Virus record (IMG/VR): IMGVR_UViG_3300028591_003737
Coordinates: 96,001-160,000 of that record
Reading direction: 5' to 3' (one strand)
Origin: a virus
Taxonomy: Duplodnaviria > Caudoviricetes
DNA: 64,000 nt
Shown here: one piece after another, positions 29,978-55,420 of the stretch
Layout of the letters: the number at the start of each line of letters is the position of its first letter
Position numbering within the stretch: position 1 is the first letter of the stretch
Made by a program: the position numbers and the translations under genes
The notes under the pieces: model-generated
Seen by the model: the letters and a program-made list of their open reading frames with translations, nothing else
The model's database searches: none
Told to the model about the DNA's origin: nothing

Positions 29978-32900
29978 ATGGCTAATTCAAATGTAAATAT
30001 TGCTAATAAATTATATGCATATATTAAACATGGTGTTGATATATCTCCTGAGATAAAGCAGATATATAACAATTCTATGATTTTTATTGGCGATGAACAA
30101 CAGATTTATGTACCAGTAATGGATACATATGTTGGTATCGGTATGACTGCATATAATGCAACAATTAACAGAATTGCATCAGTTGAAGAACAATTAAGAC
30201 AATTAGCTGAAAACCTTGCTACAGACCTTGTTACCAAGATCTATGCTGACTACTCTTTAACAGAACTTTCTAAGGGTGGTATGATCGAAGGTGGTCTTCC
30301 AGAAGGTTTTAGTGATGATTCTTGGTCATTAAATAATGATATCACTATTAAAGGTATCAATGATTATAACCCAGAAACTCATTATGCTCGTAGAATAGTT
30401 AATGGAGAAATAATTACTTTAACAGATGCTAATGGTGTTAGTGCTCAATTAGTAAATAATGGTAATACTTATGTTGGTGTTGCTCCTTATTCACAAGAAC
30501 CAGGTGTTGAAACATTTGTAAATGCTAGTTCTGGTATTACAATTACTCCACACTGGGGAGATAAAGTAAGAACAACTAACCCTGTTACTGGTCAAGTATT
30601 TGAAAAACGTACTGGTAACTATATCACTATTGATGATAAACTTACATGGAGCTACATGACAAGTGCTTATTCATACTCATTAGCATTTGCTCAGAATTAT
30701 ACAGCTTCTGAAATTGATAGAGTTTATCATAATCTTCTTGGTGAAAGTGAAGTTACTTATAATCCTGTTTCATTCAGATCATTTGTTGATGATGTAACTG
30801 AAGAATTTTCAGCATACACAGAAGGTTTAACAACTGATTTTATTAATCAATATAATGCATCTCACCCTGATACTTGGGTAGTATTACATGATAGTGGTAC
30901 TGTTGATAGTGAAAATAAACCTATTTATGATGGTGCTTATCGTATTGATAGAAAGAATATATATGTTGCTACATATACTGGTAATGATATTCTTCTTGGA
31001 GATAAGGTATACTTTGAAACAACTTATGCTCAAATTGCAAATGTATTAAGTGGTTCAGGTACATCATTTACACCAGCAACTGGAACTTCTTATGTATTAT
31101 ATGATAATGCTGAAGTTTTAGGTGTAACTTCTAATTTCTATCAGTTATATGAAAGAAGTGAACAGTATAATTCATCATATAACATGAATATTAAAGATGG
31201 TATTGAAACTCTTAAAGAAGTTGCTTACTTACTTGATGTTCTTACAGATGGTACACTTGGTGAAACAACATATTTAACATATGGTGAATGGAAAACTACA
31301 GATGCTTTAAAGGATCTTACATTTACAGATGAAGATGGTGATGGTGTTTATACAGGAACCGTTAATGATGTAACATATACTAAAGTATATAAAGGAACTG
31401 CTCCTAATGATAATGAGACATATGCTTTCTATACAGTAATGAATCCAGAAAATCTTGGTATTCAGATGGCTTATTCAATTGCTGGTAATAAGAAAGATAT
31501 TGAAGATTTACATAAGCATGCTGAATTATTAGAAAAAGGTGAAACTACTCTTAGAAGTATTCAATCAACTAATTCACAATTTGCTAATGTAACTTTACTT
31601 GGTGGTACAAAACATTGGACAAATACTGATACTAATCAAGGTGAAGCTAATTTCAATGATGAAGATGGTGATGGTCATAAAATTCATCCAAATCATGATG
31701 TAGATGAACATGCTAGACAAGAAAATTCATATCTTGTTGGTGATGTAAATATTAAAGTTACATTAAATACATCATTAACATATGCAACTGTTCATACTAC
31801 TGATGGTACAACAAATCCTCCATTTACTGATGAGGCTGGTGTTGAATGGCATGGTTTCTATACAGCTGCTGATATGGATGCAATAGATACAGCACATGCT
31901 ACTTATTATACTATTTCAGGTGGTGCTGGTACTTTACAAAGTCCTTATGAATTCCAACCAATAAGTGCTGCAGCTATTGCTGAAGCTCATACAAATGATT
32001 CTAGATATCAGACAGAACAGTATTATTGGGTTCCTGGTGGAATATATAATGAAGAAACTAATCCTGATGGTCTTGCTAAGAATAGTGTTACAGAAAATGC
32101 AGTATTCACAAAAATTAAAGTTAAAGATTTATTAGCTTTAGGTGATGCTGATGATGTTAAAGATACTGGATTTACAAAGAGTGCAATTACAGAATTCTTT
32201 ACTTGGGATGAAGGAAATGATAGATGGTCTAGTTTCGTCGATAATCAGGGTGGTAAAACTGCTATTTCAAAACTTATTGAGCAAGTAAATGCAGATGGTA
32301 TTGATGTTAATGATTATGTTGCATTTATTTCTAAATATGATCAAACAGTTATTCATACTGTTAATGATGAAAATAAACTTGCTACAACTGAATGGACAGA
32401 AGTTTATGTAAATTCAAAGGTTGGTGAAATTGCTGATGATCTTGAAAATATTCTTGAAGAAGCAAAGAAATATACTGATGATGAAATTGCTAAACTTGAT
32501 AATGAATATATTTATTCAGATTTCAGTACATATTGGTCATATTATGTAAGCTTAAATGTTGCTACAAATCCTAATTTAGGTGTAGAAGGTACTCCTGAAT
32601 ATGTAGAAGCATATAATAGAGAATATGCAGCATTTGTTTCTAATGATAGTACAAGAGTATTTGATAGTTCATATGAAGAATCAAATCCTGGTGAAGTAAA
32701 TCCTTATAGATTAAGTTATATTACTAATTCTCAATATACATATAATATTATTGAAAAGGATGGTATTGTAACAGCTGCTTCTAGAGAACTTCCTACAGAT
32801 ACTCTTAGAGTAAATGCTTATGTTTGGGGTTCAGAACAAAGTTCAACAAGAATTCAATATGCTGATATTGAAAATCTTGAAATACAAGCTCCATTATTAG

Positions 32901-33973
32901 ATGCTCTTTATGCTTGGAAAGATGCTAATCAAGATAATCAGATCTTTGTAATGGTTAATGATGATAATACTTGGGAACCAGTTCCTACAAATACTGATTT
33001 ATCAGGTATAGATAATTTTGGTAATTATAGAGTTAAACTTGATGATGGTAGTTTTGCTGCTGTTGAAGGTGCAGAATATTCAGTTATTCCAAGTATTTAT
33101 GCTAATACAAATGATATTAGATGGAAACCTCTTTATAAGAAAGTTCCTAAATATCTTGAATTAAATTTACAAGATGCTGTAGTTGGTGATAAGACTAATT
33201 CTATCACTATTACAAAAGATGGTGTTGTATTTACATTAACTAAGAGAAAGAGTGGTGACAATGTAGGTAAGATAGTAGTTACAAGTAGTGTTGAAGGTTA
33301 TGTTTATTCAGATAATATTCTTAAACATATTTCATCTAAACCAGCTGATTCTACTAAATATTTATCTGTTGAAAATAAACACTTCTCATATGTAGATAAT
33401 GGTCATGGTGAAAATCAGTTTGAAGTAACTGCTCATATTACAAAACTTGAAGATGCTACTCCTACAAATACAGGTTTTGCTGATGCATATGATGTAAGAT
33501 CATTTATTGAAAATATGTTCAGATGGGTTGATATTTCAGCTACAATTTCTGCTGATACTATTAGTCATAGAGATGTATTCTTTAAGAATACTAATCTTGA
33601 AGATGTTCCTAATGGAGCTACATTATATAGCAGAAGTGAAGCTAGCAATGTTGTTACATTCACAGAAGTTAACAATCCTGTATATGGTTGGTTCTGGCTT
33701 GATGATAATAAATTTGCTGGTACTGCAACAGGCGATAGTTTATACACTAATGATATGCCTTCAGGAATTACTATTGGTACTCATATTAAGTGTGCTGTTG
33801 AAGGCTCTGAAACAACATTCTATCTTGTTAAGAGATTCTGTGGTAATAGTGCTAATCCAGCAGTTGGTGATCCATTCTCAACAACTTATAACTATTACAT
33901 CAATATTGAAACAGCTAAGACTAATCCTCTTAATCTTAATGAAACTCTTTATGGCGCACCTGTACAGGGTTAA
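29978..33973 (+). CDS. Long tail fibre-like protein
   Basis: 1331 aa; IFIGDEQQIY, DGIETLKEVAY, LEEAKKYTDDEI fibre-type motifs; late motif at 29918-29931. Confidence 0.65.
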   Translation: MANSNVNIANKLYAYIKHGVDISPEIKQIYNNSMIFIGDEQQIYVPVMDTYVGIGMTAYNATINRIASVEEQLRQLAENLATDLVTKIYADYSLTELSKGGMIEGGLPEGFSDDSWSLNNDITIKGINDYNPETHYARRIVNGEIITLTDANGVSAQLVNNGNTYVGVAPYSQEPGVETFVNASSGITITPHWGDKVRTTNPVTGQVFEKRTGNYITIDDKLTWSYMTSAYSYSLAFAQNYTASEIDRVYHNLLGESEVTYNPVSFRSFVDDVTEEFSAYTEGLTTDFINQYNASHPDTWVVLHDSGTVDSENKPIYDGAYRIDRKNIYVATYTGNDILLGDKVYFETTYAQIANVLSGSGTSFTPATGTSYVLYDNAEVLGVTSNFYQLYERSEQYNSSYNMNIKDGIETLKEVAYLLDVLTDGTLGETTYLTYGEWKTTDALKDLTFTDEDGDGVYTGTVNDVTYTKVYKGTAPNDNETYAFYTVMNPENLGIQMAYSIAGNKKDIEDLHKHAELLEKGETTLRSIQSTNSQFANVTLLGGTKHWTNTDTNQGEANFNDEDGDGHKIHPNHDVDEHARQENSYLVGDVNIKVTLNTSLTYATVHTTDGTTNPPFTDEAGVEWHGFYTAADMDAIDTAHATYYTISGGAGTLQSPYEFQPISAAAIAEAHTNDSRYQTEQYYWVPGGIYNEETNPDGLAKNSVTENAVFTKIKVKDLLALGDADDVKDTGFTKSAITEFFTWDEGNDRWSSFVDNQGGKTAISKLIEQVNADGIDVNDYVAFISKYDQTVIHTVNDENKLATTEWTEVYVNSKVGEIADDLENILEEAKKYTDDEIAKLDNEYIYSDFSTYWSYYVSLNVATNPNLGVEGTPEYVEAYNREYAAFVSNDSTRVFDSSYEESNPGEVNPYRLSYITNSQYTYNIIEKDGIVTAASRELPTDTLRVNAYVWGSEQSSTRIQYADIENLEIQAPLLDALYAWKDANQDNQIFVMVNDDNTWEPVPTNTDLSGIDNFGNYRVKLDDGSFAAVEGAEYSVIPSIYANTNDIRWKPLYKKVPKYLELNLQDAVVGDKTNSITITKDGVVFTLTKRKSGDNVGKIVVTSSVEGYVYSDNILKHISSKPADSTKYLSVENKHFSYVDNGHGENQFEVTAHITKLEDATPTNTGFADAYDVRSFIENMFRWVDISATISADTISHRDVFFKNTNLEDVPNGATLYSRSEASNVVTFTEVNNPVYGWFWLDDNKFAGTATGDSLYTNDMPSGITIGTHIKCAVEGSETTFYLVKRFCGNSANPAVGDPFSTTYNYYINIETAKTNPLNLNETLYGAPVQG

Positions 33974-33995
33974 CCATAATAAAGTATACATAAAT

Positions 33996-34030
33996 AAAAA
34001 AGAGAGCTTTTTAAAAAGCTCTCTTTTTTT
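33996..34030. terminator. Bidirectional intrinsic terminator
   Basis: aaaaaagagagctttt / aaaagctctcttttttt between convergent genes. Confidence 0.85.
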
Positions 34031-34044
34031 ATATTTAAAATTAA

Positions 34045-34818
34045 TTAAAGATTAATAAATTTTGATTCTTCAGGAATTTCTTCTTTATTTTCTTCAGAAG
34101 GTCCAACTAAAACTCCATTCTTTACTGCTTCATTTAATGATTCAATTGATTTATCTTCAATTTCATCCTTTGAATTTTCCTTTTCATCTACTTCTTCTTC
34201 CTCTTTATAATCATTATCATCTGGAAGATTTTCAACATATTCATCATTTGCTTTATCTTCTGGATTATCTAGTTCATCATCTTCTAAAATAAGTTTCTTC
34301 TCACCATCTTCTTCTGGTTCATCTTCTTCATCAGGAAGATCTTCAACATATTCTATTTCCTCTTCAAGTTCATCTTTTCTATTTAAGAAACCAGTTACCA
34401 TACTTGTAAGAAGAAGTGCAACAATAGGAAGAATAGCACCTTGAATATAAGAAAGAATTACATTTGCTTCAGCATCTGGAAGTTGAGTCCATATAAATAA
34501 TGGTTCTTTAAAGAATTTAAGATTATCACCAGCATTAAGAAGTAAATATTTATAACAATTATATACATTACCCATTACTTGAACTAATGTGAGTATTGTC
34601 ATAAGTACCCAAGGCATTACTTTCTTTTGTTGAGTTTTATCTGTCAATATACTGAATAATACTGCTGCTTGACCTACTTCAAAAGCTACTGCAAGCATAA
34701 TAGCAAGTATAGGAGTATTAGCAAGACCAAAGAAAGCAAATCCATGAATACCAGATACTAATGCTACAAATACATAAAGTAATAAGAAAAGTATTATGTA
34801 AATTTTTTTATTTTTCAT
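34045..34818 (-). CDS. Membrane protein (about 4 TM helices) with acidic C-terminal tail
   Basis: Hydrophobic segments followed by an E/D-rich tail; late motif at 34844-34857. Confidence 0.75.
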   Translation of the reverse strand: MKNKKIYIILFLLLYVFVALVSGIHGFAFFGLANTPILAIMLAVAFEVGQAAVLFSILTDKTQQKKVMPWVLMTILTLVQVMGNVYNCYKYLLLNAGDNLKFFKEPLFIWTQLPDAEANVILSYIQGAILPIVALLLTSMVTGFLNRKDELEEEIEYVEDLPDEEDEPEEDGEKKLILEDDELDNPEDKANDEYVENLPDDNDYKEEEEVDEKENSKDEIEDKSIESLNEAVKNGVLVGPSEENKEEIPEESKFINL

Positions 34819-34857
34819 ATCGATATTTTATATATTTACCTTTAGATTAAAAATAAA

Positions 34858-34891
34858 AATAAAGGCCTACTTTTTAAAATAGACCTTTATT
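34858..34891 (-). terminator. Intrinsic terminator
   Basis: aataaaggccta / tagacctttatt imperfect stem. Confidence 0.6.
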
Positions 34892-34909
34892 CTTTAAAAA
34901 TTCAATATC

Positions 34910-35437
34910 TTATTCTTGTGTGAATTCAGTTAATTCTGAATTATATTTAAGACTTACAGGATATTTATTTATTTCACTTGAATCAAGTTTTGATAGAACT
35001 TCATTAAGAACATTCTTTGGTTCATCATCATTCTTATCAAGAAGTTCAAACTCATCAAAAAGAATAATATACTTCAAATTTGTTAATTTGAACATATCAA
35101 TCTTTTCATCTTTTACTCTATCATCATAATATGGATCCCATTTTAAATTAATCTGTTCATCTTCATAAGTATCTGAAGAATGTTCAAATTTCTCATATTC
35201 AAAATATGCATCATTTATATAATCCTTATTCTTACCAAGAAGATTTTGATATTTAGTATTTTCTGAAGGAAGTTCTTTAAGAAGAACATCTCCAAGATAA
35301 ATTTGAATATCACTTTCAGAATAAATTTCTGGACCAGTGAGAGTAAAAACCTGTGGATTTATATCAAAAACTGCCTTAACATTAGTTAAGTGGATTTTCT
35401 CATAAGATTCTTTAATATAATTAACTAAATTCTTCAT
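34910..35437 (-). CDS. Hypothetical protein with CTS-like leader
   Basis: Starts MKNLVNYIKE; directly follows the sigma gene. Confidence 0.75.
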   Translation of the reverse strand: MKNLVNYIKESYEKIHLTNVKAVFDINPQVFTLTGPEIYSESDIQIYLGDVLLKELPSENTKYQNLLGKNKDYINDAYFEYEKFEHSSDTYEDEQINLKWDPYYDDRVKDEKIDMFKLTNLKYIILFDEFELLDKNDDEPKNVLNEVLSKLDSSEINKYPVSLKYNSELTEFTQE

Positions 35438-36669
35438 TATTCATCACCATCGATATTATTAAGACCAAACATCTTATCTTCCATTATTCTGGTTGAAAGA
35501 TAGATTGGTTCTCCATCATCTTCATATTCATCTTCATCATGCTTTGCTTCTTGCATAAGTTCAAAGATGTCTACGAATTTCTGGAACATTTTTTTATCTT
35601 TCTTGATAAAGTTGATAACTTTAGCAATTTCTGCTGTAATTGAAGATGGTGAACTATAACCATACTTCTTAGCCATTTCTTTACCAGAAAGCTTCTTTTC
35701 TCCATTTTCAAGACCAAAACCAAAGTGGTTCTTAAAGATATCCATAGTCTTTTCACCGAACTTATCTTCAAGAGCCTTAAGAATTTGTGACCAAAGGTCT
35801 TCAATTTCCTGACGGTCAATATTCTTACCAGGATTTTCCATTCCACCTACAAGGTCGAATAATGTCTTACCTTCTTCACCATCCTTTCCACCAAGATGAC
35901 GGTCACCAGATACTGAATTAGATTTAGCGATATAACCTTTCTCTTCCTTTTCTTTCTTTTGTCTTGAAATAGGAATACGTACAAGATGTGAGAAATTCTT
36001 TGTTGCTTCAAGAATTTCTACACGAATCATTTGTGCAGCATACTGAAGGAAAGTATATGACTTATACTTAGAAATATCAATTTCTTCACCAGTCAATTCT
36101 TCCTTCTTTTTCTGTTTATTACTCTTCTTTCCATAAGTGTCCATTGCATAGACAAGTCCCTTCATACCAAAGGCATAAATATCATCTCTATCGAATGAAG
36201 TCTTACCAAGCCAAGAATTAGTAATCTTATGTACAAGAGGTTCATACTTCTTTACAATTTCAGTTCTACCCTTCTCTGTAGTAAGGTCCATGATAATTTC
36301 ATCAGGAGAAGCAGTCTTATCAATAATTGAATCAAACTGTTCTTTTGTCATAAGAGTAGGGATTTCAAGTATACGACCACTTGAATATATTTTACTGATG
36401 TTACTATATAATGATTTAAGAGATGCTTCCTTTGGAAGTCCCTTATTGAAGAAATCAACAATAGCATTATCAGTATCTCCTGTAGAAAGATCTTTAATAT
36501 ATGTCTTATTGTTATCAATTAACCATTTACATACTTCTTTTGCTTCAGGAGAAATAAATTTATCAGCAATTTCAAGATACTTGTTAAGCTGATCAACTGT
36601 TAAATAATTAACTGAATCCTCTTGGATTTCAATTGTTTTTGCTTCGAATAACTGCGAAAATCTCTTCAT
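35437..36669 (-). CDS. Phage RNA polymerase sigma70-family factor
   Basis: Region 2 YEPLVHKI...GMKGLVYAMDTY...TFLQYAAQMIR, LVRIP, and region 4 HTH FGFG...LSGKEMAKKYG. Confidence 0.88.
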   Translation of the reverse strand: MKRFSQLFEAKTIEIQEDSVNYLTVDQLNKYLEIADKFISPEAKEVCKWLIDNNKTYIKDLSTGDTDNAIVDFFNKGLPKEASLKSLYSNISKIYSSGRILEIPTLMTKEQFDSIIDKTASPDEIIMDLTTEKGRTEIVKKYEPLVHKITNSWLGKTSFDRDDIYAFGMKGLVYAMDTYGKKSNKQKKKEELTGEEIDISKYKSYTFLQYAAQMIRVEILEATKNFSHLVRIPISRQKKEKEEKGYIAKSNSVSGDRHLGGKDGEEGKTLFDLVGGMENPGKNIDRQEIEDLWSQILKALEDKFGEKTMDIFKNHFGFGLENGEKKLSGKEMAKKYGYSSPSSITAEIAKVINFIKKDKKMFQKFVDIFELMQEAKHDEDEYEDDGEPIYLSTRIMEDKMFGLNNIDGDE

Positions 36670-36713
36670 ATTATATGTTTAATTAAACTTATTTGTTAGC
36701 ATACTTCAGATAA

Positions 36714-36813
36714 AACATAGAATAAATTTTCAAAAATTCAATATTTTTTACTAAAAAAATTAAAATATTGAAATATAAATTCCAAGTTATCTATATTTAT
36801 ATATAAAAATAAA
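36714..36813. promoter_or_regulatory. Divergent control region with early- and late-type motifs
   Basis: Minus strand: TTGAAT-N16-TATGTT (36714-36741) and TTTATTTTTATATA (36800-36813). Plus strand: TTGAAA-N18-TATATT (36768-36797). Confidence 0.6.
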
Positions 36814-36830
36814 AGTTTTATATCATAGTT

Positions 36831-37367
36831 ATGTCTTTATTTAAATGGTCTTACCAACATTCTCTATTAGGAAGGACTATTAATATGGTATCAGATTATA
36901 TATATTTCAAAAGAGATAAAAAAATAGTATCTGATACTTTATATGGTGATGCTTTTAAAGTTGTAATTAGAAAATATTTAAAGACAACTCTTAAAAAGGA
37001 TTGGATTGGACGTTTATATGGTGTTGTTAATCCTAATCTTGATGAAAATGGTAAATACGATTTCAATAGTGTAATTATTGAAATTGATGGAGATAATACA
37101 AATAATAATGAATATGTAAAGAATTGGGTTTACAGACAAATGCAATTAATTGCTTCATTATTTAAAATTGAAAAATTATATGATTATATTGATATAGACT
37201 TCAAACATGTAGGTCCTGAAAATCAAGATAATTATTTAGTTATATTCGATATAGTTTCAAGACAAAGTTTCGTTGATAGTGTAAAAAAGTTTTTCCGTCA
37301 TATTTTATTTGATGGTGGTCTTACTGCAATAATACTAATAATTTTGAAACTTTTATTAATTATATAA
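36831..37367 (+). CDS. Hypothetical protein with C-terminal membrane anchor
   Basis: 178 aa ending GGLTAIILIILKLLLII. Confidence 0.75.
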   Translation: MSLFKWSYQHSLLGRTINMVSDYIYFKRDKKIVSDTLYGDAFKVVIRKYLKTTLKKDWIGRLYGVVNPNLDENGKYDFNSVIIEIDGDNTNNNEYVKNWVYRQMQLIASLFKIEKLYDYIDIDFKHVGPENQDNYLVIFDIVSRQSFVDSVKKFFRHILFDGGLTAIILIILKLLLII

Positions 37368-37387
37368 AAATATTTTTAACGTTAAAA

Positions 37388-37891
37388 ATGGATGTACTTG
37401 AAAAGAAAAAGCAATTAGCTGAGTACGAGAAGAGTTTAAAGAGTTTAACTCTTGATGAGCTTAAAGCAAAGGAACAGGAAATTATCAAAGAAGCTGATGA
37501 GAATGATAAAGCTATCGCTTCTAAGGAATTCAAACTTCCTGGTGAAAATTATAAGGTAGTTGCAAATGGAATCAGAAACATTCTTAATAAGCAGAGTGTT
37601 GAATGGAGATTTACTCTTGGTATGGTTTCAATGTATGAATTCTGGGATCCTGAAAATTTCCCTGGAAATGTAGGTTATCCTATGCTTGATGCAACACTTC
37701 GTACAATTGGTGAAATGAAATTCACCGGTTATGAAGAGTGGGCAGCAGTAGTAGCAATTAATAAGTATTTTGAAACACTTCATAAAGAATATGAAGAAGC
37801 TACAGAAAAGATTTATGATATTGCTTCTAAGCATAATGCTATCGTAGATGAAATTACTCTTCGTGAGCCAGTTAAAGCACAAGCTGAATAA
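37388..37891 (+). CDS. Hypothetical coiled-coil protein
   Basis: 167 aa. Confidence 0.8.
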   Translation: MDVLEKKKQLAEYEKSLKSLTLDELKAKEQEIIKEADENDKAIASKEFKLPGENYKVVANGIRNILNKQSVEWRFTLGMVSMYEFWDPENFPGNVGYPMLDATLRTIGEMKFTGYEEWAAVVAINKYFETLHKEYEEATEKIYDIASKHNAIVDEITLREPVKAQAE

Positions 37892-37923
37892 TTTAGTTTA
37901 GCCAAGTTTATATTTTAGTATTT

Positions 37924-37960
37924 CCTTTATTGGAGAGTAAAATCTTCAATAAAGGTTTTT
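37924..37960 (+). terminator. Intrinsic terminator
   Basis: cctttattggaga / tcttcaataaagg followed by a T run. Confidence 0.75.
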
Positions 37961-38034
37961 ATTTAGTCCCAGATTTAATCTAAAACTATTAACCATATAC
38001 TAATATATTTTTTTAGTTAAAGCGCTCCAGAATT

Positions 38035-38074
38035 AAAAAGAGCTATCAAGGATTTAAAATCTTTGATAGCTTTT
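38035..38074 (-). terminator. Intrinsic terminator
   Basis: agctatcaagga / tctttgatagct stem. Confidence 0.75.
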
Positions 38075-38078
38075 AAAT

Positions 38079-38285
38079 TTAAATTCCATATATTTTAGGT
38101 AATCTGTCTAAAGTCTCTTTTAAATTAGAACCAGGATAAATATACCTGTCATTCCAACCATTATATTGTATAAACCATTTTAAATGTATTATACAATTTT
38201 GTGAATTAGCAATATCAATACATTGTTGAATATCTTCATCAGATGGATGACCATTACTTATAAATTCTTTTACAGGAGTTATCAT
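38079..38285 (-). CDS. Hypothetical protein
   Basis: 68 aa, overlapping the helicase stop codon. Confidence 0.7.
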   Translation of the reverse strand: MITPVKEFISNGHPSDEDIQQCIDIANSQNCIIHLKWFIQYNGWNDRYIYPGSNLKETLDRLPKIYGI

Positions 38286-40087
38286 ATATTCTTTACAACT
38301 ATTTTATAATCATATTTATTTTCTTTATAAATCTTTACTTTTTCAAGTCCTTGACGATATATAGATTTATTACATATATCATCATCAAAACAATCTATAA
38401 AATCATAAACTATATATTTATCTTTAAGTTTACTAAGACCAAGTCCACGACCAAGAGATTGCATATTAATTGTACCTGATTTGAAACTTTCAAAAAGTAC
38501 ACCAAAACAAAGATTAGAAAGAGTAATACCAGTTCCTATACAACCATAAGAAGCTACAAGAATACAATTATTATTTTCTTTAAGGGTCTTTTTAATTTGG
38601 TCTCTTTCTTTAGATTTTGTCTTACCATGAATTATACATACAATTTTATCTGGCATTCTTTTCTTTATTTCTTCAGCAACATATACAAGATATTCTGTAT
38701 GATGAGCAAGAACAAGAGTATTATATGGACAAATACTAAGAATATCATTACATAGAATATCAATTCTTTCATTCATAAAATGTACCATCATTTTCTCAAT
38801 CATAAGACTATTTGCTCCTGTTGAGGCTTTTATCTGTTCTTGAAGAAAATCAATATATTTCATATCCTTTTGTTCTTTACTTAAATTAGGATCATGATAT
38901 ATCTGATTTTTAACCATTAAAATACCATAAGGAAATTGTTTCTCATACTGTATAAGAAATTCTGGATTTTTAAGTAATACTTTATCTTTCTTTTTTGAAT
39001 TCTTTTTATTTGGTACTTCTACAAAAGGAGAAAGACAATATTCAGCACAACGAATAAATAATTCTTTTTGTTTTTCAAAATTCTTATAATTTATTCTATA
39101 CTGATAAATTTCAATATCAGAAATATATCCAGCATCCATCAACTCTCTTGGTTTAATTTCTTGTATCTTTGCACCAATAAGAGCATGAAGACAATAATGT
39201 TCAATTGTCTTTTCTTTAGGAAGTGTACCAGTCATACCAAAAGCAATCTTTACTTTATTCATGAATGGTTGAGAGATAATATTCTTAATCTGTGCTGCTG
39301 TCGCACGATGAACTTCATCTACAAATACACAATCATAATCATCAAAGAAACGAGGATTATATTTCTTATTTCCTCTTTCAATATATCTGATAAGACTTTG
39401 GAATGTACCAACTGTAAGATTTGCTGACTCAACTAATTTACCACCAGACCAAATGCATTCTGTTTTAAAAAATTCAGCATACTCATTAAAATCATCAAAT
39501 GCTTGTTTAACAAGATCAACAGAAGGAACAATCATAAGTATTTTCTTGACACCAAGATATTCCATAGAATATCTGAATATCATATATGAAATAAGAGTTT
39601 TACCAGCACGAGTTGCAAGTTGTGAAAGAGATTTATTCCATTCAATTATTTTATATGCAGCTTCATATTGATATGGTCTAGGTTCAAGAGAAAGATTCCA
39701 AGATTTAACTATTTCTTTGAATTCATCAAATGTATGAATCATTTTACGTTTAAATCTTGAAGGCTCTAGACCATCATAAGGAATATTGTTCTTTTTAAGA
39801 AATTTATATATATCTTGCCAAAGCCCAATACTACACCAAAGAATTTTCTGTCCACTTGGTTGGACATAATCAAATATAAAATCTTGTGTAAATCTTGGTC
39901 CAGTAAATGTTGGAAGATAACAAATAGGATCTACAAGATTTATATGATTTTTTAATTCTTCAAATACATGTTTACGAAAATATTTCTTTACAGATTTATC
40001 AAAAACCTGCATATATTCATCTTCTGTCCAATCACATTTGAGAAATAAATATCTATTATCTTTATCTGAAAAAGTAAAATGTACCAT
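38282..40087 (-). CDS. uvsW: UvsW-like SF2 DNA helicase
   Basis: PRPYQ, ATRAGKT, DEVH, GMTGT, QSLGRGL, VYDFID. Confidence 0.88.
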   Translation of the reverse strand: MVHFTFSDKDNRYLFLKCDWTEDEYMQVFDKSVKKYFRKHVFEELKNHINLVDPICYLPTFTGPRFTQDFIFDYVQPSGQKILWCSIGLWQDIYKFLKKNNIPYDGLEPSRFKRKMIHTFDEFKEIVKSWNLSLEPRPYQYEAAYKIIEWNKSLSQLATRAGKTLISYMIFRYSMEYLGVKKILMIVPSVDLVKQAFDDFNEYAEFFKTECIWSGGKLVESANLTVGTFQSLIRYIERGNKKYNPRFFDDYDCVFVDEVHRATAAQIKNIISQPFMNKVKIAFGMTGTLPKEKTIEHYCLHALIGAKIQEIKPRELMDAGYISDIEIYQYRINYKNFEKQKELFIRCAEYCLSPFVEVPNKKNSKKKDKVLLKNPEFLIQYEKQFPYGILMVKNQIYHDPNLSKEQKDMKYIDFLQEQIKASTGANSLMIEKMMVHFMNERIDILCNDILSICPYNTLVLAHHTEYLVYVAEEIKKRMPDKIVCIIHGKTKSKERDQIKKTLKENNNCILVASYGCIGTGITLSNLCFGVLFESFKSGTINMQSLGRGLGLSKLKDKYIVYDFIDCFDDDICNKSIYRQGLEKVKIYKENKYDYKIVVKNI

Positions 40088-43509: not shown

Positions 43510-46509
43510 TTATTTAGTTTCAATAATATTACTTGACATCTGACCTGTCTTGTAAAGTGTAAGTTCGTGAATCATCTTACCACAACCCATACCTGGTTCG
43601 ATATGTGTAGAAAGAATTGCCATTTCATTGTCAATAATTTCTGGAGTATTATTTGATTCATCCATTACATTAAGATAAGCCTGAATACCACCATTAGCAG
43701 CAACTCTTGCGCAGATGAAATTAGCTTTATCAAGGATAGCATTTCTTGTTGTAGGATTATTGAATTCCCACTGATATGCCTGAAGTACCTTTTCAATTTC
43801 ATCCTGTAAGTAAATTACAAGTTCACGTACATTTACTTTAGAAAGAGCTGAAACAGGAGTCTGTTTTGCAGTCTGGTTAGCATTGATAAATGTACCAAAA
43901 CCTGGACGGTAAACAAGACAGTTAACACCAAATGGTTCAATAATCTGAAGTTCATCCATTGAGTAACTGTAATCAGGACCTACAAGATCTGCACATTCAA
44001 TCTTAGCATTGTTAGGACCAGCTACGATGTAGTAAGGCTGTCTTGATGTGTACTTAGTCATGAATAAGTTAGAAACAACACCTGCTGAAGGAACGATTGT
44101 ATCTACATAACCATCACTGAGTTTCATTGGTGAATAGAATGCTGCAAATGATGCACCTTCTGCTTCTGTAGGAAGTGAGAATTTCTTACCAAATGCTTTC
44201 TTCTTATTATAACCAGCAGCTACATATGCTACATTGAATACACCCTTAGCATCTGTGAATGAAGTGTAAGGACATTTAAGGAATGTCTTTACTGAAGGGA
44301 AGTTAAGAATTGCAAATGCACTCTGCTTTTCTTTTGCAAGGTATGAAAGAACCTTCTTAGCTGAGCTATCAACATAAGTTTCAAATGTATCAATGATATA
44401 TCTGTAGTCGATATTAGCTTTATTAAGAAGAGCAGTCTTAAGACCCTTATATTCAGAAATAGCTGAAAGTAAGAAGTTCTGCCAATTAAGTTTGTCAATC
44501 ATGCTTGTTGAAGCAGGTTTGCCATTCTTATATACATAACCTTCAAGATACTGAGGAACGAATGTACCAATTTCCTGATTAAGAGCAGCATCAATTCTTA
44601 CAAGATATGAATTACCATCATTATCTACTTTAAGAAGAGGTTCACCAGTTAATCTGATAATATATTTAACTTTATCAGTACCTTCTATCTTTTCTGAAAG
44701 AATTTCCTGAACATATACATTATCGAAGAAACCATCTTCTGCATCAGCTTCACCATCACCATCTTTATCAATAGAACCGTCTTCTGCAAGGAAGCAGTCA
44801 CCTACTGAAAGACTTGTGAAAATACTCTTGTCCCAAGGACTATCAGCGTTTACAAATTCATAAACACCATTATTTTCACTACCAACCCATGCTTGATCAT
44901 CAACAGGAATAAATGTTACTGAAGAACCATAAACTGTATTAGCTTCATCATCATTCTTTACAGATTCTGGTGTAACTTCTACTAATGAAACCTTCATGTT
45001 ATTATCTGTATCACCATAAACACCATAAGGAGATGTTGCTGAAGTTGCTTCAAGACGAGTAATAGAAGTAATAACTGTAGCAGGACCTTCTGATGTAAAT
45101 TCACCATTTTCATCAATGAATGCATTACCACTTGTAAATACTGAACCATAACCATCTGTTAAAATACCATTTTCACCAATAGCATTTAATTTACCAAGAA
45201 TAGTATTGAATTCAGCAGCATTATCACCACATTCAATATCAATTGTCTTCTGAGAATCACCTACTTGTGTAAGAGTAATCTTATGATTTTCTTCATCAAT
45301 ATTAGATATATAAAGTGTACCTGTTACTTTCTTTTCATTCTTATTATCGAAATCAATAATAGCTTTAAGAGCACCATTTTCATCTCTCTTAACAACATTG
45401 TTTGTAAATTCAACCTTTTCAGAAACAACAGGAGCATTTAAGTTACCAAGAAGTGAAGTAGTTGCAGTACCATTAAATAAATTATCAAGTAATTCTTCAT
45501 TAATTGAAAGTCTACCTGAAAGATCAATATTAGCAATACCATCTTCTTCAAGTAAATCAACATTGAAACTCATCATCATATTGTGAGTATCACTGTCATT
45601 ATTGAAAAGTATATCAAGTGCTGCATAACCACCTTGCTTGTTCTTGAAGTAAGGAATAAGAGCACCTACATAGTGACCGATAGCACCAGATGTTTCATCT
45701 GCATAAAGAGCATCAAGAGCATCGATTTCATCACCATAAGCATTAAGAACATGTTTCTTTAATTTAACATCTTCTGAGTTAATATCATCTACACCATCGA
45801 AATAGAATTTAAGTGTTGAAGAAGCAAGAACCTGTGATTTTGTGAATTTTCCTTTGAATACATAGATTTCTGCAAAGAAGTCAGAAATTAATGAATTCTT
45901 ATATGGTTCAAGATATTCTGGAAGTTCTTCATCTGAATACCAATCACTTACTGTGATATTATATCCATTTACTTTAGAACCAGAAGCTTTACGGATAAAG
46001 TATGTACCTGATAACTGCTTAGTGTTGATAGCACTAATGTTAATGTACTGATCCATGAAAGCACCAGAAGCTGATTTAAGACCATTAAGTTTTTCTGCAG
46101 AAAGTTCCCAGAATCTTGTTGTGTCATAAATATCTTCAACATTTAACTTAACTGTGTTAATAATATCGTATTTAGGATTAAAGTCTGTATTGATAGTTGC
46201 AGCATCAACTGTTTCACCATCAAACTTCTTAAGGTTCAAGCAAAGGATAGGACCAGATGCAAGAGCCTGAATAGCGATACGATGGAAGAAAACTCCTCTC
46301 TTTTCGAGTTTCTTTGAAATATCACCATAAACAGCTTTAAAATCAGTAACAGATGTAATATAAGTAGGAATGTTGAAAGGACCCTTTTCTGAGTAACCAA
46401 CAACAAGTCTAAGAACACTACTTTCTACGCCAGCTACGGTTGATTTATCAAAAACAATACGGTATATACCAGCAGCTTTAAATTGTTGTAAATAAACTGG
46501 AATAGCCAT
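43510..46509 (-). CDS. Contractile tail sheath protein (T4 gp18-like)
   Basis: N-terminal AAGIYR..VVGYSEKGPFNIP; C-terminal SKVNVREL, WEFN, VMDESNNTPEIIDN. Confidence 0.92.
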   Translation of the reverse strand: MAIPVYLQQFKAAGIYRIVFDKSTVAGVESSVLRLVVGYSEKGPFNIPTYITSVTDFKAVYGDISKKLEKRGVFFHRIAIQALASGPILCLNLKKFDGETVDAATINTDFNPKYDIINTVKLNVEDIYDTTRFWELSAEKLNGLKSASGAFMDQYINISAINTKQLSGTYFIRKASGSKVNGYNITVSDWYSDEELPEYLEPYKNSLISDFFAEIYVFKGKFTKSQVLASSTLKFYFDGVDDINSEDVKLKKHVLNAYGDEIDALDALYADETSGAIGHYVGALIPYFKNKQGGYAALDILFNNDSDTHNMMMSFNVDLLEEDGIANIDLSGRLSINEELLDNLFNGTATTSLLGNLNAPVVSEKVEFTNNVVKRDENGALKAIIDFDNKNEKKVTGTLYISNIDEENHKITLTQVGDSQKTIDIECGDNAAEFNTILGKLNAIGENGILTDGYGSVFTSGNAFIDENGEFTSEGPATVITSITRLEATSATSPYGVYGDTDNNMKVSLVEVTPESVKNDDEANTVYGSSVTFIPVDDQAWVGSENNGVYEFVNADSPWDKSIFTSLSVGDCFLAEDGSIDKDGDGEADAEDGFFDNVYVQEILSEKIEGTDKVKYIIRLTGEPLLKVDNDGNSYLVRIDAALNQEIGTFVPQYLEGYVYKNGKPASTSMIDKLNWQNFLLSAISEYKGLKTALLNKANIDYRYIIDTFETYVDSSAKKVLSYLAKEKQSAFAILNFPSVKTFLKCPYTSFTDAKGVFNVAYVAAGYNKKKAFGKKFSLPTEAEGASFAAFYSPMKLSDGYVDTIVPSAGVVSNLFMTKYTSRQPYYIVAGPNNAKIECADLVGPDYSYSMDELQIIEPFGVNCLVYRPGFGTFINANQTAKQTPVSALSKVNVRELVIYLQDEIEKVLQAYQWEFNNPTTRNAILDKANFICARVAANGGIQAYLNVMDESNNTPEIIDNEMAILSTHIEPGMGCGKMIHELTLYKTGQMSSNIIETK

Positions 46510-46713: not shown

Positions 46714-48441
46714 TTAGATAAGTCCAAATTCTGAACCAACTGTAAATGTGAAGTACTGTGTTTCTGGATAGAAACCAGCGTCAACAATAGCATATCTTGA
46801 GTTAACAAGCATCTTAGGAGCCATTGTACCTTCAGCTGTGATAGATACTGTATCAGCAAGAATATAAGGCATAAAGATTACACCAGGTTCATTACCGTTA
46901 CCCTTTCTACCAACGCAAACTCTTGTGTCATCCCAATCCATATAAGGATCAACATAAACCTTAAGACCTGCAATTGTACCACTCATGAATAAGTTCTGTG
47001 AACCATCCTGTGCGAAGTTGTTTACCATAGGAGCAACAACATAACCACTAACATCCTGAAGAGCTGTAGCAACCTGAGCATTTGTAACAACCCATGTTGG
47101 TCTACCTCTACGTCCAGTTACCTGGATAAGGTTAGCAGCAGCAAGAAGCTTAGAACCAATTCTTCTCTGACGAGTATGAAGATTTTCAGCACTTGTGTTA
47201 ACTTCACTGTTCTTGATTGTTCCCCAATCTCCTTTGTGTTCTACACCATATACATCCTTGAAAGTCTTGATTGACTGAGCAGCCATTGTGCTATCTGATG
47301 TACCCATCCAAAGGTTAAGGTCAACACCCTGATAGATCTTCTGGTTAATAGCGTTAGTTACACCAAGAGCAAATACATGTTCAAGAATTCTAGCATTGAT
47401 TGACTGAGTGATTTCATTCTGCATTGCTTCCATAACCTTAGCAACAGCGTCAACACCGTAAAGAGGAAGATCCTGAAGTTGCTGTCTTGTTACAGTACCA
47501 GTTACTTCATAAGAACCCATCTGTACCCATTTGCTGAATAATCTAAGACCAAGTACATTACCTGTACCAGTTTCATTTTCAGCTCTTGTCATTGATCTCT
47601 TTTCACCAGTTGCGAAGTTAGCGAAACCATCAACGAAATCAACCATTGTCTGAGCGAAATCAACTGAAGTTACATTACCAGCAGCAACACCGCTAAGAAC
47701 TGCAGGATTTACACCATCGAAAAGATCTGCTACAGCAGCGTGACCATCAGCACCTTCGCAAGAAACAACCTTAACGATAAGACCGTGATCCATTCTACCA
47801 AGCTGTACAAATGTACCCTTGAATGTTACACCATTACCTACAACAGTAACTGATTTGTCAGCATCATCAGCAAGTTTTCTAAGAGCTGCTGTATCACCAT
47901 CAAAACCAAGGAATTTTACATAAAGAGGTTTGTTTTCAGCACCTTCTCCTCTACCATCAAGGCCAGCTACTTCGTTCTTTCTACCCATCTTACCACCAGC
48001 ATATGGGAAGTCCATATAAGTTAACATTGCCCAAGGACCTTTAGCAGGAATAACTGGAACAAGTTCAAGACCGATTGTAAGAAGTGCTACGTTAAGGGCC
48101 ATAGGAAGTGTTGATACAGGAATATCACCGCTACCAACTGCCTGTTTAAAGAAGTCACCTGATGCACCCATTGGAACCTGACCATTAGCACCATAACCTG
48201 GAGCCATTGGATTACCCATACCAAGAGTATTAAGAGGTGTAGCATAAAGTGGAGAAACACCCTGTGCAGGAGCTACCTGACCATTGATATTAGCGCCACC
48301 AACACCAAGCATTGATTCATGAATTTCATGGATAGCTGCATATTGTGATACCCAGTTTAACTTTTCGTTATCTGTAACGTTGAAATTTTCTTTCAACATT
48401 TTAGTCCACATCTGTGTACCATTTTGTTCGTTAATAAACAT
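46714..48441 (-). CDS. Major capsid protein (T4 gp23-like)
   Basis: NEITQSIN, GRRGRPTWVV, GTIAGLKVYVDPY, GVIFMPY, TMAPKMLVNSRYA; late motif at 48523-48536. Confidence 0.92.
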   Translation of the reverse strand: MFINEQNGTQMWTKMLKENFNVTDNEKLNWVSQYAAIHEIHESMLGVGGANINGQVAPAQGVSPLYATPLNTLGMGNPMAPGYGANGQVPMGASGDFFKQAVGSGDIPVSTLPMALNVALLTIGLELVPVIPAKGPWAMLTYMDFPYAGGKMGRKNEVAGLDGRGEGAENKPLYVKFLGFDGDTAALRKLADDADKSVTVVGNGVTFKGTFVQLGRMDHGLIVKVVSCEGADGHAAVADLFDGVNPAVLSGVAAGNVTSVDFAQTMVDFVDGFANFATGEKRSMTRAENETGTGNVLGLRLFSKWVQMGSYEVTGTVTRQQLQDLPLYGVDAVAKVMEAMQNEITQSINARILEHVFALGVTNAINQKIYQGVDLNLWMGTSDSTMAAQSIKTFKDVYGVEHKGDWGTIKNSEVNTSAENLHTRQRRIGSKLLAAANLIQVTGRRGRPTWVVTNAQVATALQDVSGYVVAPMVNNFAQDGSQNLFMSGTIAGLKVYVDPYMDWDDTRVCVGRKGNGNEPGVIFMPYILADTVSITAEGTMAPKMLVNSRYAIVDAGFYPETQYFTFTVGSEFGLI

Positions 48442-48557
48442 TGTAATTTATAAAAATTTATTTGTTATTTTTTGTAATTATATTCTTTTTATTTATCTTC
48501 CGATAAATGTTGTCTATTTACTTAATTAAAAATAAATAATTTTAAATGAGATAGAAA

Positions 48558-50303
48558 TTAAGCTCTTCTGAGTCTCATCATCTGAGCATATACATTGTTA
48601 TAATGACTTTCAAGAACGTCCTTTGGTTCTTCAACTGACTGAGGAGTTTTTGCTGAAGCAAAATCTACACTCTGCCAGAATGATTCAAGAACACCTTCTT
48701 TCTTAAAGTCATAAGCCTTTGACATTCTAACTATTTCGTCTTGTCTTTCTTCTGAAAGAGCATTCCAAGATGGCTGATATTCAGCAGGCATATTTTCAAC
48801 TACGTATACACCAGCGAACTTATCTTGTGCTTTCTGTTCTTTTACAAGCTGTGAGATAGCTTCATCTTTGTTTTCAAGGCTTTCAATAAGAGCGTCAATA
48901 TCTGAAAGCTTAGCAGATTTCTGACTTTCCATGAAAGCAGAAACATTTTCATTTACTTTTGCTTCGATATTAGCATTGTTTTCAGGAGTATATTCTTCAT
49001 TAATCCAACCTTCGATAACTGGAGCAAATTCTTCACAAACCCAATTCTGAACTTCTGGTGCAAATTCTTCACATACCCAATTCTGTACTTCTGGAGCAAA
49101 TTCTTCACATACCCAGTTCTGTACTTCTGGAGCGAATTCTTCTGTAATCCAATTCTGTACTTCAGGAGCGAATTCTTCGCATACCCAATTCTGAATAGTT
49201 TCTGAGAAATTCTCAACTACCCAATTTTGAACATCTGAATTAATAGACTCTGAAAGTTCTGTCTTAAATTCAGGAGCAAATTCTTCTGTAACCCATTTTT
49301 CAATCTTTTCATACTGAGGAGCTTCATAAGCATTTACCTTTTCATTTACACCATTAAGTGTTTCATTAACACTATTAATAGAAGTATTAACACCTTCAAG
49401 TGTTTCATTAAGTTTTGCAATTTCTGCATCCTTAGCTGTTAATGATTCTTGAGCAACATGAAGTTCAGCTTCTAAACTAGTTACCTTTTCAGTAAGTTTA
49501 TCAATTGCTTCTTTTAAATCATTCATTGTAGTATCTTGACTATTTTTGTTATTATCATCTTTATCAGATGTATCTTCTTTATTTTCATCGTCATTTTCTT
49601 CATCTTCTTTCTTGTCATCACCTTCTTCAGATTTTTCATCTTTCTTAGGTTCGTTTTCAGAAGAAGAATCTCCTTCACCTTTATCCTTGTTGTCTTTATT
49701 ATCTTCTTCACCAAGTAAATCATCGTCTTCGCTTTCATCTACGATAGCCCAGATTTCATTACCGTCTTCAGCAGATTCATTTAAACATTCAAGGGTTTGA
49801 TTGGCTTTAAGGTTTAATTTAGCTTGAGCAAAACCAGGTGTACCAACTAAGTCATAAGTTTTAATAGTAGAAAGTGTTACATTACCATTTTCATCAATAG
49901 AACCAGCACCTCTAGAAGAAATATAAAGAGGAACACCACCAGCAACAATAGCTTTTGCATCTTTACCTTTAGCAGTATCAAGTAAAAGAATTGTACCAGT
50001 AATTGTACCATCTTCATTCATTTCAATAGACTCAATCTTATGTGAAACATTATTAAGATTAATATTCATAGTATTAGGATGTTCAAGTTCTCCAAGAAGA
50101 CCTTCAGTTGAAATAACTTTTTGAAGATTTTCAACCATTAATCCGTAATTTTCCTTTGAATATATACGTCTATTTTCATTCTTAATTCCGCAAACACCAA
50201 ATACACCTGTCATACGAACTTCATTAGTATTCTGAGACTCCTGGATCTGCAATCCTGTTGTAGGTCCTAAAGTTTCAAATACCATGCATTTTTTATTTGC
50301 CAT
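48558..50303 (-). CDS. Prohead core protease (T4 gp21-like) fused to an acidic/coiled-coil scaffold region
   Basis: NENRRIY, GELEHP, VSHKI, ISSRGAGS, TYDLVGTPGF, then an acidic linker, coiled coil and 12-aa repeats. Confidence 0.9.
   Translation of the reverse strand: MANKKCMVFETLGPTTGLQIQESQNTNEVRMTGVFGVCGIKNENRRIYSKENYGLMVENLQKVISTEGLLGELEHPNTMNINLNNVSHKIESIEMNEDGTITGTILLLDTAKGKDAKAIVAGGVPLYISSRGAGSIDENGNVTLSTIKTYDLVGTPGFAQAKLNLKANQTLECLNESAEDGNEIWAIVDESEDDDLLGEEDNKDNKDKGEGDSSSENEPKKDEKSEEGDDKKEDEENDDENKEDTSDKDDNNKNSQDTTMNDLKEAIDKLTEKVTSLEAELHVAQESLTAKDAEIAKLNETLEGVNTSINSVNETLNGVNEKVNAYEAPQYEKIEKWVTEEFAPEFKTELSESINSDVQNWVVENFSETIQNWVCEEFAPEVQNWITEEFAPEVQNWVCEEFAPEVQNWVCEEFAPEVQNWVCEEFAPVIEGWINEEYTPENNANIEAKVNENVSAFMESQKSAKLSDIDALIESLENKDEAISQLVKEQKAQDKFAGVYVVENMPAEYQPSWNALSEERQDEIVRMSKAYDFKKEGVLESFWQSVDFASAKTPQSVEEPKDVLESHYNNVYAQMMRLRRA
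48985..49308 (-). repeat. 36-bp coding tandem repeat (EVQNWVCEEFAP)
   Basis: Nine in-phase 36-nt units; five near-identical at 49021-49200. Confidence 0.92.
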
Positions 50304-51406: not shown

Positions 51407-51730
51407 TCAATACTTAGGATAAATATATAATATCATATTGTTTGTTTTACAAGGTTTTTCAACATCTAAATTTTCTTCAATCCATTTAGCAACTGGTTTA
51501 TATATCCATCTATGTTGTTTCTGTACTGATAAGAAAATATATTTCTTTGATTTACCTACGTTAATATATTCTTCATAATTATCAAATTTTACTAATCCAG
51601 AATATTTTTCAATAATATATTTTTTAATCTCTGAAATAAATTTATTGTTTATTTCATCAATATCATCTAATACTTCTGTTTCTTTATTTAAGTGAAGTTT
51701 TTCTAATATGTAATTATTGATATTAATCAT
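51407..51730 (-). CDS. Putative internal head protein (CTS-like leader)
   Basis: MININNYILEKLHLNK. Confidence 0.7.
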   Translation of the reverse strand: MININNYILEKLHLNKETEVLDDIDEINNKFISEIKKYIIEKYSGLVKFDNYEEYINVGKSKKYIFLSVQKQHRWIYKPVAKWIEENLDVEKPCKTNNMILYIYPKY

Positions 51731-51732
51731 TT

Positions 51733-54186: not shown

Positions 54187-54200
54187 AATATATTATTTAA

Positions 54201-55103: not shown

Positions 55104-55105
55104 AA

Positions 55106-55420
55106 TTATTTATCTTCATCTTTATTTTGTAATGTTGATAATGAAACAAAATGTTTACAAAATTTAGTTAAATTTTTAAAATCTCTTTGCATTAATATTT
55201 TAAATCCTAAAATCATTAATGCTCCTCCTAATTGTATAGGATGCCAGATTTTTTTAGCTTCTATACCTTCTTTTTCTAAAAGATTACGTAATTTAATTTC
55301 ATCAATTTCTAATTCTTGAAGAAAATTAGAAAATATTTTATCTATATCTTTATTTTCTAAACTTTCAGAAATTAATAAATTATTTACTGGTTTATTTATA
55401 AATTCTTCTAATGATTTCAT
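55106..55420 (-). CDS. Hypothetical protein with CTS-like leader
   Basis: MKSLEEFINK...LISE. Confidence 0.65.
   Translation of the reverse strand: MKSLEEFINKPVNNLLISESLENKDIDKIFSNFLQELEIDEIKLRNLLEKEGIEAKKIWHPIQLGGALMILGFKILMQRDFKNLTKFCKHFVSLSTLQNKDEDK

Follow-up and report, generated by a model that had tools for sequence, protein, structure and literature searches.

A divergent σ70-family factor with a leader-like N-terminus in a jumbo phage with a T4-type head

Introduction

Phage-encoded σ factors and proteins that are loaded into the capsid are each well known separately. The early-made σ factors gp28 and gp33/34 of SPO1 and gp55 of T4 redirect the host core RNA polymerase to middle and late promoters, and N4, phiKZ-like and crAss-like phages inject whole virion RNA polymerases, their early genes being independent of host specificity factors. 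Here we describe an operon that touches on both themes, in which a gene for a σ70-family factor with a leader-like N-terminus precedes a gene whose product carries a strict version of the same leader. The operon lies in a window of 64,000 nucleotides (the whole stretch of DNA analysed) that comprises bases 96001-160000 of the 169.6-kb viral record IMGVR_UViG_3300028591_003737 (~27% G+C, CheckV completeness 60%). An earlier note on this DNA had proposed that the σ factor is made late, packaged into the phage head and injected to redirect the host polymerase to early phage promoters. We favour a simpler reading, in which it acts as an ordinary σ factor of a transcriptional cascade.

The T4-lineage ('group 2') jumbo phages have a gp23 capsid, lack an RNA polymerase and encode σ factors of their own (Iyer et al., 2021, PMC7824862), and the virion RNA polymerase of phiKZ is summarised in PMC7318152. 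For the loading of proteins into the head, the capsid targeting sequence of T4, MKTYQEFIAE, has been experimentally defined (PMC8442874); the prohead protease cleaves it a single time, and a protein to which it is fused is retained in the head (PMC8442874; PMC3012670). A σ factor has also been found in virions, since Gp10 of the Salmonella phage Arash was detected in purified particles by mass spectrometry with 100% coverage and 24 unique peptides (PMC10585845). Phage σ factors in the T4 jumbo lineage are already known, and a virion-associated σ factor is already published. The statement that a virion-delivered σ factor had not been described thus needs correction for the Arash virion; of a σ factor delivered alone to act on the host core enzyme, our literature search found no description.

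Identity and architecture of the σ factor

The operon, which the earlier note had placed correctly, consists of two open reading frames (ORFs) of 410 and 175 amino acids at 35437-36669 (-) and 34910-35437 (-). As a single sequence, the longer ORF matches nothing in Pfam or PHROGs and nothing in the PDB by phmmer, and searches of 50,697 phage records with tblastn and megablast returned no relative. A single-protein scan of IMG/VR gave one close relative only, and an alignment was therefore required. The homologues number 256, on contigs reaching 473 kb, and a family profile made from 33 of them gave 39 hits in the PDB, all 39 of which are σ factors (best E=2e-5). This profile aligned with regions 2.1-2.2 and 2.3-2.4 of RpoS and SigA and weakly with region 4 of RpoS, and PF04542 matches 19 of the 33 aligned family members. 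Among the NCBIfam models, TIGR02937 recognises the ORF with E=7.7e-8 and 32.1 bits, under its 42.9-bit cut-off, in an alignment that covers residues 202-355 and positions 48-161 of the 165 of the model; the orthologue in a 410-kb relative (completeness 97%) reaches 44.5 bits. The SigB/F/G, FliA and SigI models match residues 132-186, those of SigF/G and FliA at 133-185.

The AlphaFold model of the protein, with a predicted local distance difference test score (pLDDT) of 72, retrieves exclusively σA/σ70 chains as top Foldseek matches, and the alignments with full-length chains extend over ~380-410 columns at probability 1.0. Together with these alignments and that to TIGR02937, two helices at residues 329-336 and 341-357 of the model suggest, with moderate confidence, a C-terminal σ4 domain with a helix-turn-helix. 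The Trp-Trp pair of primary σ factors is replaced by Gln-Met, as read from the sequence. Profiles and model together identify this ORF as a divergent yet genuine member of the σ70 family, and the family assignment made earlier is borne out by NCBIfam, the PDB profile, PF04542 and Foldseek alike. The same is true of the N-terminal extension of ~125 amino acids described at that time, which corresponds to a helical domain (residues 10-130) that is confidently folded in the model (pLDDT 78-92), kept across the 33 aligned homologues and matched by no Pfam family.

The σ ORF and ORF175 overlap by ATGA and a terminator-like hairpin follows ORF175, from which a two-gene operon is deduced (Table 1). 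The gene order σ-ORF175-membrane protein is kept in four related phage sequences (L006, L007, L008 and L010; the names L006 to L010 and G001, loci L102-L122, denote such relatives). ORF175 itself has no match in Pfam, PHROGs, NCBIfam or Atlas. Its confident α/β model finds nothing in the PDB by Foldseek better than E 0.045, and VIA-align returns generic ferredoxin/ACT-like folds only (Z ≤5.4). A complex prediction for σ and ORF175 scored 0.00, which is uninformative in either direction. The phage record contains a second σ70-family gene, without a leader and probably starting with GTG, and the 410-kb relative has exactly two σ-family ORFs.

Table 1. Features of the σ operon, of the promoter-like motif classes and of the head and tail genes; positions are those of the window unless marked as genome positions.
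Feature	Position	Strand	Evidence or remark
σ70-family ORF, 410 aa	35437..36669	-	starts MKRFSQLFEAKTIE; NCBIfam, PDB profile, PF04542, Foldseek
σ residues 1-9, MKRFSQLFE, degenerate leader-like, ends L-x-E	36643..36669	-	matrix score; pLDDT <50
σ residues 10-130, predicted helical N-terminal domain	36280..36642	-	conservation, model
σ residues 132-236, predicted σ2 domain (regions 2.1-2.4)	35962..36276	-	NCBIfam, profile, PF04542
σ residues ~285-357, predicted σ3/4 region with C-terminal helix-turn-helix	35599..35817	-	TIGR02937, profile, model
Second σ70-family gene	genome 90858-92108 (L005:838-2088), ~4-5 kb before window start	-	PF04542 31.6 bits; TIGR02937 76 bits
ORF175, acidic (isoelectric point (pI) 4.5), 175 aa	34910..35437	-	conserved; translationally coupled to the σ gene
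ORF175 residues 1-10, MKNLVNYIKE, strict leader	35408..35437	-	matrix score 17.8
Terminator-like hairpin and T run, operon end	34855..34894	-	sole such site in 34700-36900, 0.3 expected
Class A motif of the operon, TTATTTTTATATA, late-type	36800..36812	-	131 nt upstream of the σ ATG
Class B motif of the operon, TTGAAT-N16-TATGTT, -35/-10, early-type	36714..36741	-	45 nt upstream of the σ start
Class A, TTATTTTTATATA, all sites	2-29 nt ahead of giant fibre-like genes and of arrays of leader genes		14/17 sites intergenic
Class C, TTATTTTTAAT, all sites	before capsid, protease and sheath genes, e.g. 48525-48535		8/9 sites intergenic
Class B, TTGAAT-N16/17-CTATATT, all sites	24-45 nt before non-leader genes, e.g. 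15951-15978		17/30 sites in the ~8% of DNA that is intergenic
T4 gp23-type major capsid protein	46714..48441	-	PF07068 103-104 bits; phrog_28442 4.8e-109
T4-type (gp21-type, S77) prohead protease fused to scaffold	48558..50303	-	PF03420 36.5-38.7 bits; phrog_207 4.6e-40
Tail sheath	43510-46509		within the window

Promoter classes, phage type and probable host

A scan with a generic σ70 consensus yielded 14 sites against 14.5 in shuffles of this AT-rich DNA, and for this reason only recurrent strict motifs were used. Three classes emerged. Classes A and C share their upstream half and together make up the TTATTTTTA-type promoters, which are found before the genes for capsid, protease, sheath and fibres. 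Genes that begin with the leader also stand behind classes A and C, and class B is located before early-type genes without it. The words early and late reflect the gene content behind each class, from which their timing is deduced. Upstream of the operon, the late motif and the early-type motif that had been reported earlier are both present and both belong to these recurrent, mostly intergenic classes. A class B-like motif is also found before the second σ gene.

The phage is a jumbo myovirus with a T4-type head and matches the pattern of the group 2 jumbo phages. In addition to the capsid and protease genes, the window encodes a UvsW-like helicase and a fragment of a family B polymerase. The capsid protein shares 31-39% identity with its counterparts in Sphingomonas phage PAU, Tenacibaculum phages PTm1 and pT24, Chryseobacterium phage MA9V and the Prevotella Lak phages, with 31-38% for the first four, and no close relative in culture was found. 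The β' catalytic domain (PF00623) was found in none of four records, namely this one and three relatives that include the 97%-complete 410-kb genome; this does not prove the absence of a phage RNA polymerase, because phiKZ-type enzymes are very divergent and the present record is 60% complete.

The host is probably a rumen Bacteroidota. DNA nearly identical to positions 33000-39000 of the window is found in gut metagenomes of sheep and cattle from 12 studies, and a Shine-Dalgarno-like word precedes just 10 of the 214 ORFs of the record (simple ORF call). The phage malate/lactate dehydrogenase (genome 80975-81946 (-)) has its best relatives, at 46-55% identity, nearly all in Bacteroidota, and a TonB-dependent receptor with Plug and barrel domains is encoded at genome 73414-75486 (-). 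Bacteroidetes promoters have no classical -35/-10 boxes and use TAnnTTTG (PMC7366714), which makes class B look foreign to the probable host. The -10 box of class B partly agrees with TAnnTT; the conserved TTTG end is absent and the spacing is off.

A genome-wide leader probably related to head assembly

The leader, of the form M-[KRINS]-x-[LIVF]-x-x-[YF]-[ILVM]-x-E, begins 31 of the 214 ORFs, compared with 0.04 expected from composition, and the pattern fits one of 815 internal methionines. In the 410-kb relative it begins 83 of 506 ORFs, and the share of genes that carry it is ~15-16% in the two phages. The leader is real and far beyond chance. Its conserved residues are encoded by synonymous codons, which indicates selection on the peptide and not a DNA repeat. 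Two sub-classes can be distinguished: a 'simple' one, in which the leader is followed mostly by Ser, Ala or Gly, and a large gene family in which it continues as E-K-L-H-L-N-K-D here and as E-K-F-R-L-S-K-D-N in the 410-kb relative. The relative G001 encodes ~50 paralogues that start M-K-K-L-N-Q-F-I-T-E-K-F-R-L-S-K-D-N, and also proteins with tandem leaders, M-K-K-L-N-H-Y-I-S-E-A-E-R-...-Y-I-T-E-K-F-R (e.g., at 139330-139908, 250947-251741 and 292831-293712). Immediately upstream of the head genes, and on their strand, are arrays of leader genes (window 51407-63511 (-)), and a further array lies at genome 18265-24085 (-). Tagged members of these arrays include a HAD-type hydrolase (59554-60195) and a DUF285 protein (60804-61445), and a cytidylyltransferase-like gene inside the array (56339-57154) is without the leader.

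A link to the prohead is apparent in the core signature [YFW][ILV]xE[EK][FL], which occurs 29 times in the proteome (2.0 expected), 21 times at ORF residues 7-12. Of its eight internal occurrences, six belong to the protease-scaffold protein, whose S77 protease domain (about residues 1-170) is fused to an acidic linker, a coiled coil and ~7 tandem repeats N-W-[VI]-x-E-E-F-A-P-E-V; these six fall in the repeats. The corresponding figures in the 410-kb relative are 64 against 4.2 expected, with 47 N-terminal and seven in the scaffold, and there W-I-T-E-E-F scaffold repeats exist beside F-I-T-E-K-F leaders. When scored with a matrix derived from the simple leaders, the T4 sequence MKTYQEFIAE reaches 7.8, which is within the range of true leaders (at least 7.5, median 15) and among the top 0.2% (p=0.002) of the internal Met-started 10-mers that served as the null. 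Moreover, the promoter ahead of leader genes is of the late type in 24 cases versus two of the -35/-10 type (p=8e-8), and in 73 versus three in the 410-kb relative (p=7e-22). Based on the type of protease and capsid, the score of the T4 sequence, the signature of the scaffold repeats and the late-type promoters, the leader probably acts as a signal of the T4 kind by which proteins enter the prohead core.

Capsid loading sits less easily with the very large size of the tagged set and with the acidity of the tagged proteins (median pI 5.2-5.6), among which are ordinary-looking enzymes such as the HAD hydrolase. It also has to accommodate the related cultured phage PTm1, which has the same protease-scaffold fusion and lacks leader genes throughout the 50 kb examined. 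These features would suit an amphipathic N-terminal helix with another role in late proteins (docking, oligomerisation or localisation), in which case the σ factor and ORF175 would stay unpackaged and the σ start might be an unrelated amphipathic start or a σ-specific element, e.g., a tethered autoinhibitory or partner-binding helix; that the ungapped match of the σ start to the leader matrix reaches only p=0.03 would agree with this. Such a role appears unlikely to us in view of the signature shared specifically with the protease-scaffold repeats, the likeness to an experimentally defined T4 signal, the exact placing of Glu as residue 10 and the Ser, Ala or Gly that mostly comes next, as at a protease site, and the largest arrays of simple leaders, which adjoin head genes on the same strand.

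The N-terminus of the σ factor compared with the leader

The start of ORF175 is a perfect leader, as had been claimed earlier (MKNLVNYIKE, score 17.8). The strict form is present in 70 of 77 distinct N-termini of ORF175 homologues, with Glu10 invariant in the alignment, and in the model residues 1-10 (pLDDT 53) lie outside the globular fold and are followed by Ser at position 11. The N-terminus of the σ factor is of another kind. It ends in L7-F8-E9, then Ala, and fails the consensus (hydrophobic at 4, aromatic at 7, Ile or Leu at 8, Glu at 10) by having Leu at position 7 and Glu at position 9, whereas Tyr or Phe occupies position 7 in 31 of 32 proteins of this phage and 83 of 90 of the 410-kb relative that fit the rest of the pattern. 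No other nine-residue form exists in its genome. Without a gap it scores -5.0 on the leader matrix (rank 39 of 214, p=0.03), and with a one-residue deletion allowed 9.3 (p=0.0024). In the model these nine residues (pLDDT <50) form a short helix detached from the fold, as does the leader of ORF175. The 'leader variant' of the earlier note is therefore apt in so far as the start is leader-like with L-x-E (p=0.0024, gapped) and too generous in that the strict pattern is failed at positions 7 and 10.

A similar balance is found across the family, whose conserved start reads M-K-x-F/L-S/T-x-hydrophobic-hydrophobic-x-E-A/S-K with the Glu varying between positions 9 and 12. Among 102 representatives (full-length, one per 50%-identity cluster), 17 have a canonical leader, 25 a ten-residue form with a non-aromatic residue at 7, 30 a nine-residue form and 30 none. 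Conservation of the leader across homologues, which the earlier note had named as a check, thus holds for some form of it in 72 of the 102 and not for the canonical one. A relative with 25% identity (L009) starts with the canonical MHNFTQYIVE. Judged from these sequences, the σ peptide is most simply seen as related to the leader and less tightly constrained, and its first nine residues are probably a degenerate, ancestral form of the leader.

Ordinary cascade, delivery or sequestration

The reading that we favour, with a rough probability of 0.5, is that of an ordinary cascade σ factor with a leader-derived N-terminus. This protein would associate with the core RNA polymerase of the host and guide it to one of the three phage promoter classes: the host holoenzyme would read class B, both σ factors would be made early, and each of them would turn on one TTATTTTTA-type class. 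The distal late-type promoter would maintain expression of the operon in late infection, in a positive feedback or for the supply of ORF175. An ordinary cascade explains why both σ genes are located behind class B, and no new mechanism is needed for this. It is also supported by the difference in leader conservation between ORF175 (strict in 70/77 N-termini) and the σ family (17/102).

Several observations weigh against this reading. There are two σ factors for three promoter classes. In no other unit of the genome does class A immediately precede class B without an intervening gene, as it does in the σ operon; this arrangement is kept in relatives of 43-90% identity, and an A-like distal motif is kept upstream of the σ gene in L006, L008 and L010. 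If the host belongs to the Bacteroidota, an ordinary cascade leaves unexplained what reads class B at time zero. Finally, the N-terminal motif M-K-x-F/L-S/T-x-hydrophobic-hydrophobic-x-E is kept in ~70% of the 102 distant representatives and is canonical in some of them, and this persistence speaks for a function that has been retained and against decay.

A σ factor delivered in the virion would account for much of this. In this scenario, the σ factor would be synthesised late from the class A promoter and dock on the protease-scaffold core, ORF175 would be loaded by means of its strict leader, and the protease would cut after Glu9 of the former and Glu10 of the latter, leaving the mature proteins in the head until both are ejected with the DNA. 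The injected σ factor would then capture the host core polymerase for the class B promoters, among them those of its own gene and of the second σ gene, and the second σ factor would subsequently activate the TTATTTTTA-type late classes. We regard this as possible, though doubtful. It draws on everything that connects the leader with the prohead, i.e., the resemblance to the T4 targeting signal (score 7.8, p=0.002), the core signature common to leaders and protease-scaffold repeats in this phage and the 410-kb relative, the late-type promoters of leader genes and the selection on the peptide evident from synonymous codon variation. More specifically, it draws on the σ N-terminus, which is leader-like (p=0.0024-0.03), lies outside the fold and is canonical in 17 of the 102 representatives, and on the conserved A+B tandem; of the two σ genes, only the leader-like one has a late-type promoter as well. 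Two σ factors for three promoter classes, a probable Bacteroidota host without -35/-10 promoters and the precedent of Arash virions point the same way. However, the σ factor lacks the two most invariant features of the leader, the aromatic residue at 7 and Glu at 10, and in its family the Glu wanders from 9 to 12 and the motif is absent from 30 of 102 representatives, while the leader of ORF175 is nearly invariant. In addition, the late promoter could serve ORF175 alone, leader-tagged proteins are acidic whereas the internal proteins of T4 are basic, the host σ factor could still read class B, and both σ genes stand behind an early-type promoter as in an ordinary temporal cascade.

That the σ factor alone (possibly with ORF175) would be packaged by a weakened T4-type peptide and would fire class B promoters unread by the primary σ factor of a Bacteroidota host seems unlikely on present sequence evidence. 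What supports the packaging proposed earlier is a leader that is plausibly a prohead signal and a conserved pair of A and B promoters; what weakens it is the start of the σ factor itself, which is degenerate and less conserved than that of ORF175.

A third use of the peptide would be a sequestration switch, in which the leader-like peptide draws the σ factor to proheads late in infection, where it is removed or degraded and its promoter class is shut off, any delivery into the next cell being merely incidental. A weak leader would produce the partial, late capture that such a switch entails, the class A promoter keeps the σ gene on late, and the T4 protease gp21 degrades scaffold-associated proteins (gp22). 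Nevertheless, a late promoter for a factor that is due for removal would be uneconomical, we know of no precedent for the sequestration of a σ factor by proheads, and we consider this switch very improbable.

Neighbouring genes and other features

The membrane protein that follows the operon in all relatives (34045-34818 (-)) contains several hydrophobic segments and ends in a long acidic tail, and a class C motif of its own precedes it (34846-34856). On the other side of the operon, positions 36831-37891 (+) contain two conserved genes, for a 178-aa protein whose C-terminus has a hydrophobic segment and for a coiled-coil-like protein of 167 aa, which are always divergent from the σ operon in relatives. 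Positions 33000-39000, parts of the σ gene among them, are partly covered by contigs from four metatranscriptome runs of at least three studies; such contigs reveal neither start nor strand, level or timing, may derive from DNA carry-over and were not used for promoter activity. Within this region the deepest contigs of all four runs are at 37194-37958.

Giant ORFs of 2954, 1331, 2319 and 1297 aa are located at 5634-14498 and 29978-33973 of the window and at genome 28925-35884 and 44692-48585. The one scanned, at 29978-33973, has no match in Pfam or PHROGs. Two of the giant ORFs probably encode paralogous fibre proteins, because they have the start M-A-N-S-N-V-x-I-x-N-K-L in common. An Ig-like (Big_2) protein extends into the start of the window (3-2198).

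Significance and comparison with known systems

If the σ factor were indeed cargo, it would represent a third way of starting an infection, beside the use of the host holoenzyme and the injection of a whole polymerase, and would explain how phages of Bacteroidota use promoters unlike those of their host. Even if no packaging takes place, the operon provides a test system with a strict (ORF175) and a weak (σ) leader in one transcription unit, in a phage in which scaffold repeats carry the signature of the leader and three sharp promoter classes are found with two σ factors.

The two σ factors and several promoter classes of this phage fit the cascades of SPO1 and T4, in which the σ factors have neither an N-terminus resembling a capsid-targeting sequence nor a late promoter stacked on an early one. 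In contrast to the N4, phiKZ-like and crAss-like phages, the specificity subunit alone would be delivered here. The gp23 capsid, the family B DNA polymerase, the UvsW-type helicase, the lack of a detectable RNA polymerase and the possession of own σ factors are shared with the group 2 jumbo phages (PMC7824862), from whose σ factors the present one differs by a conserved N-terminal domain of ~120 aa, 9-12 leader-like residues, the ORF175 partner and the tandem promoters. With IPI-III and Alt of T4, which carry MKTYQEFIAE and are processed by gp21 (PMC8442874; PMC3012670), the leader shares a length of ~10 residues and the form M-K-x-hydrophobic-x-x-aromatic-I-x-E. ORF175 fits this form fully; the σ peptide, in contrast, has nine residues and lacks the aromatic one, and the putative cargo amounts to 15-16% of genes and is acidic, whereas that of T4 is few and basic. 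Finally, Arash Gp10 can be likened to the σ factor described here by membership of the σ70 family. Arash packages it together with the β and β' subunits of its own RNA polymerase, whereas no phage polymerase is detectable here, so that a packaged σ factor would need the core enzyme of the host.

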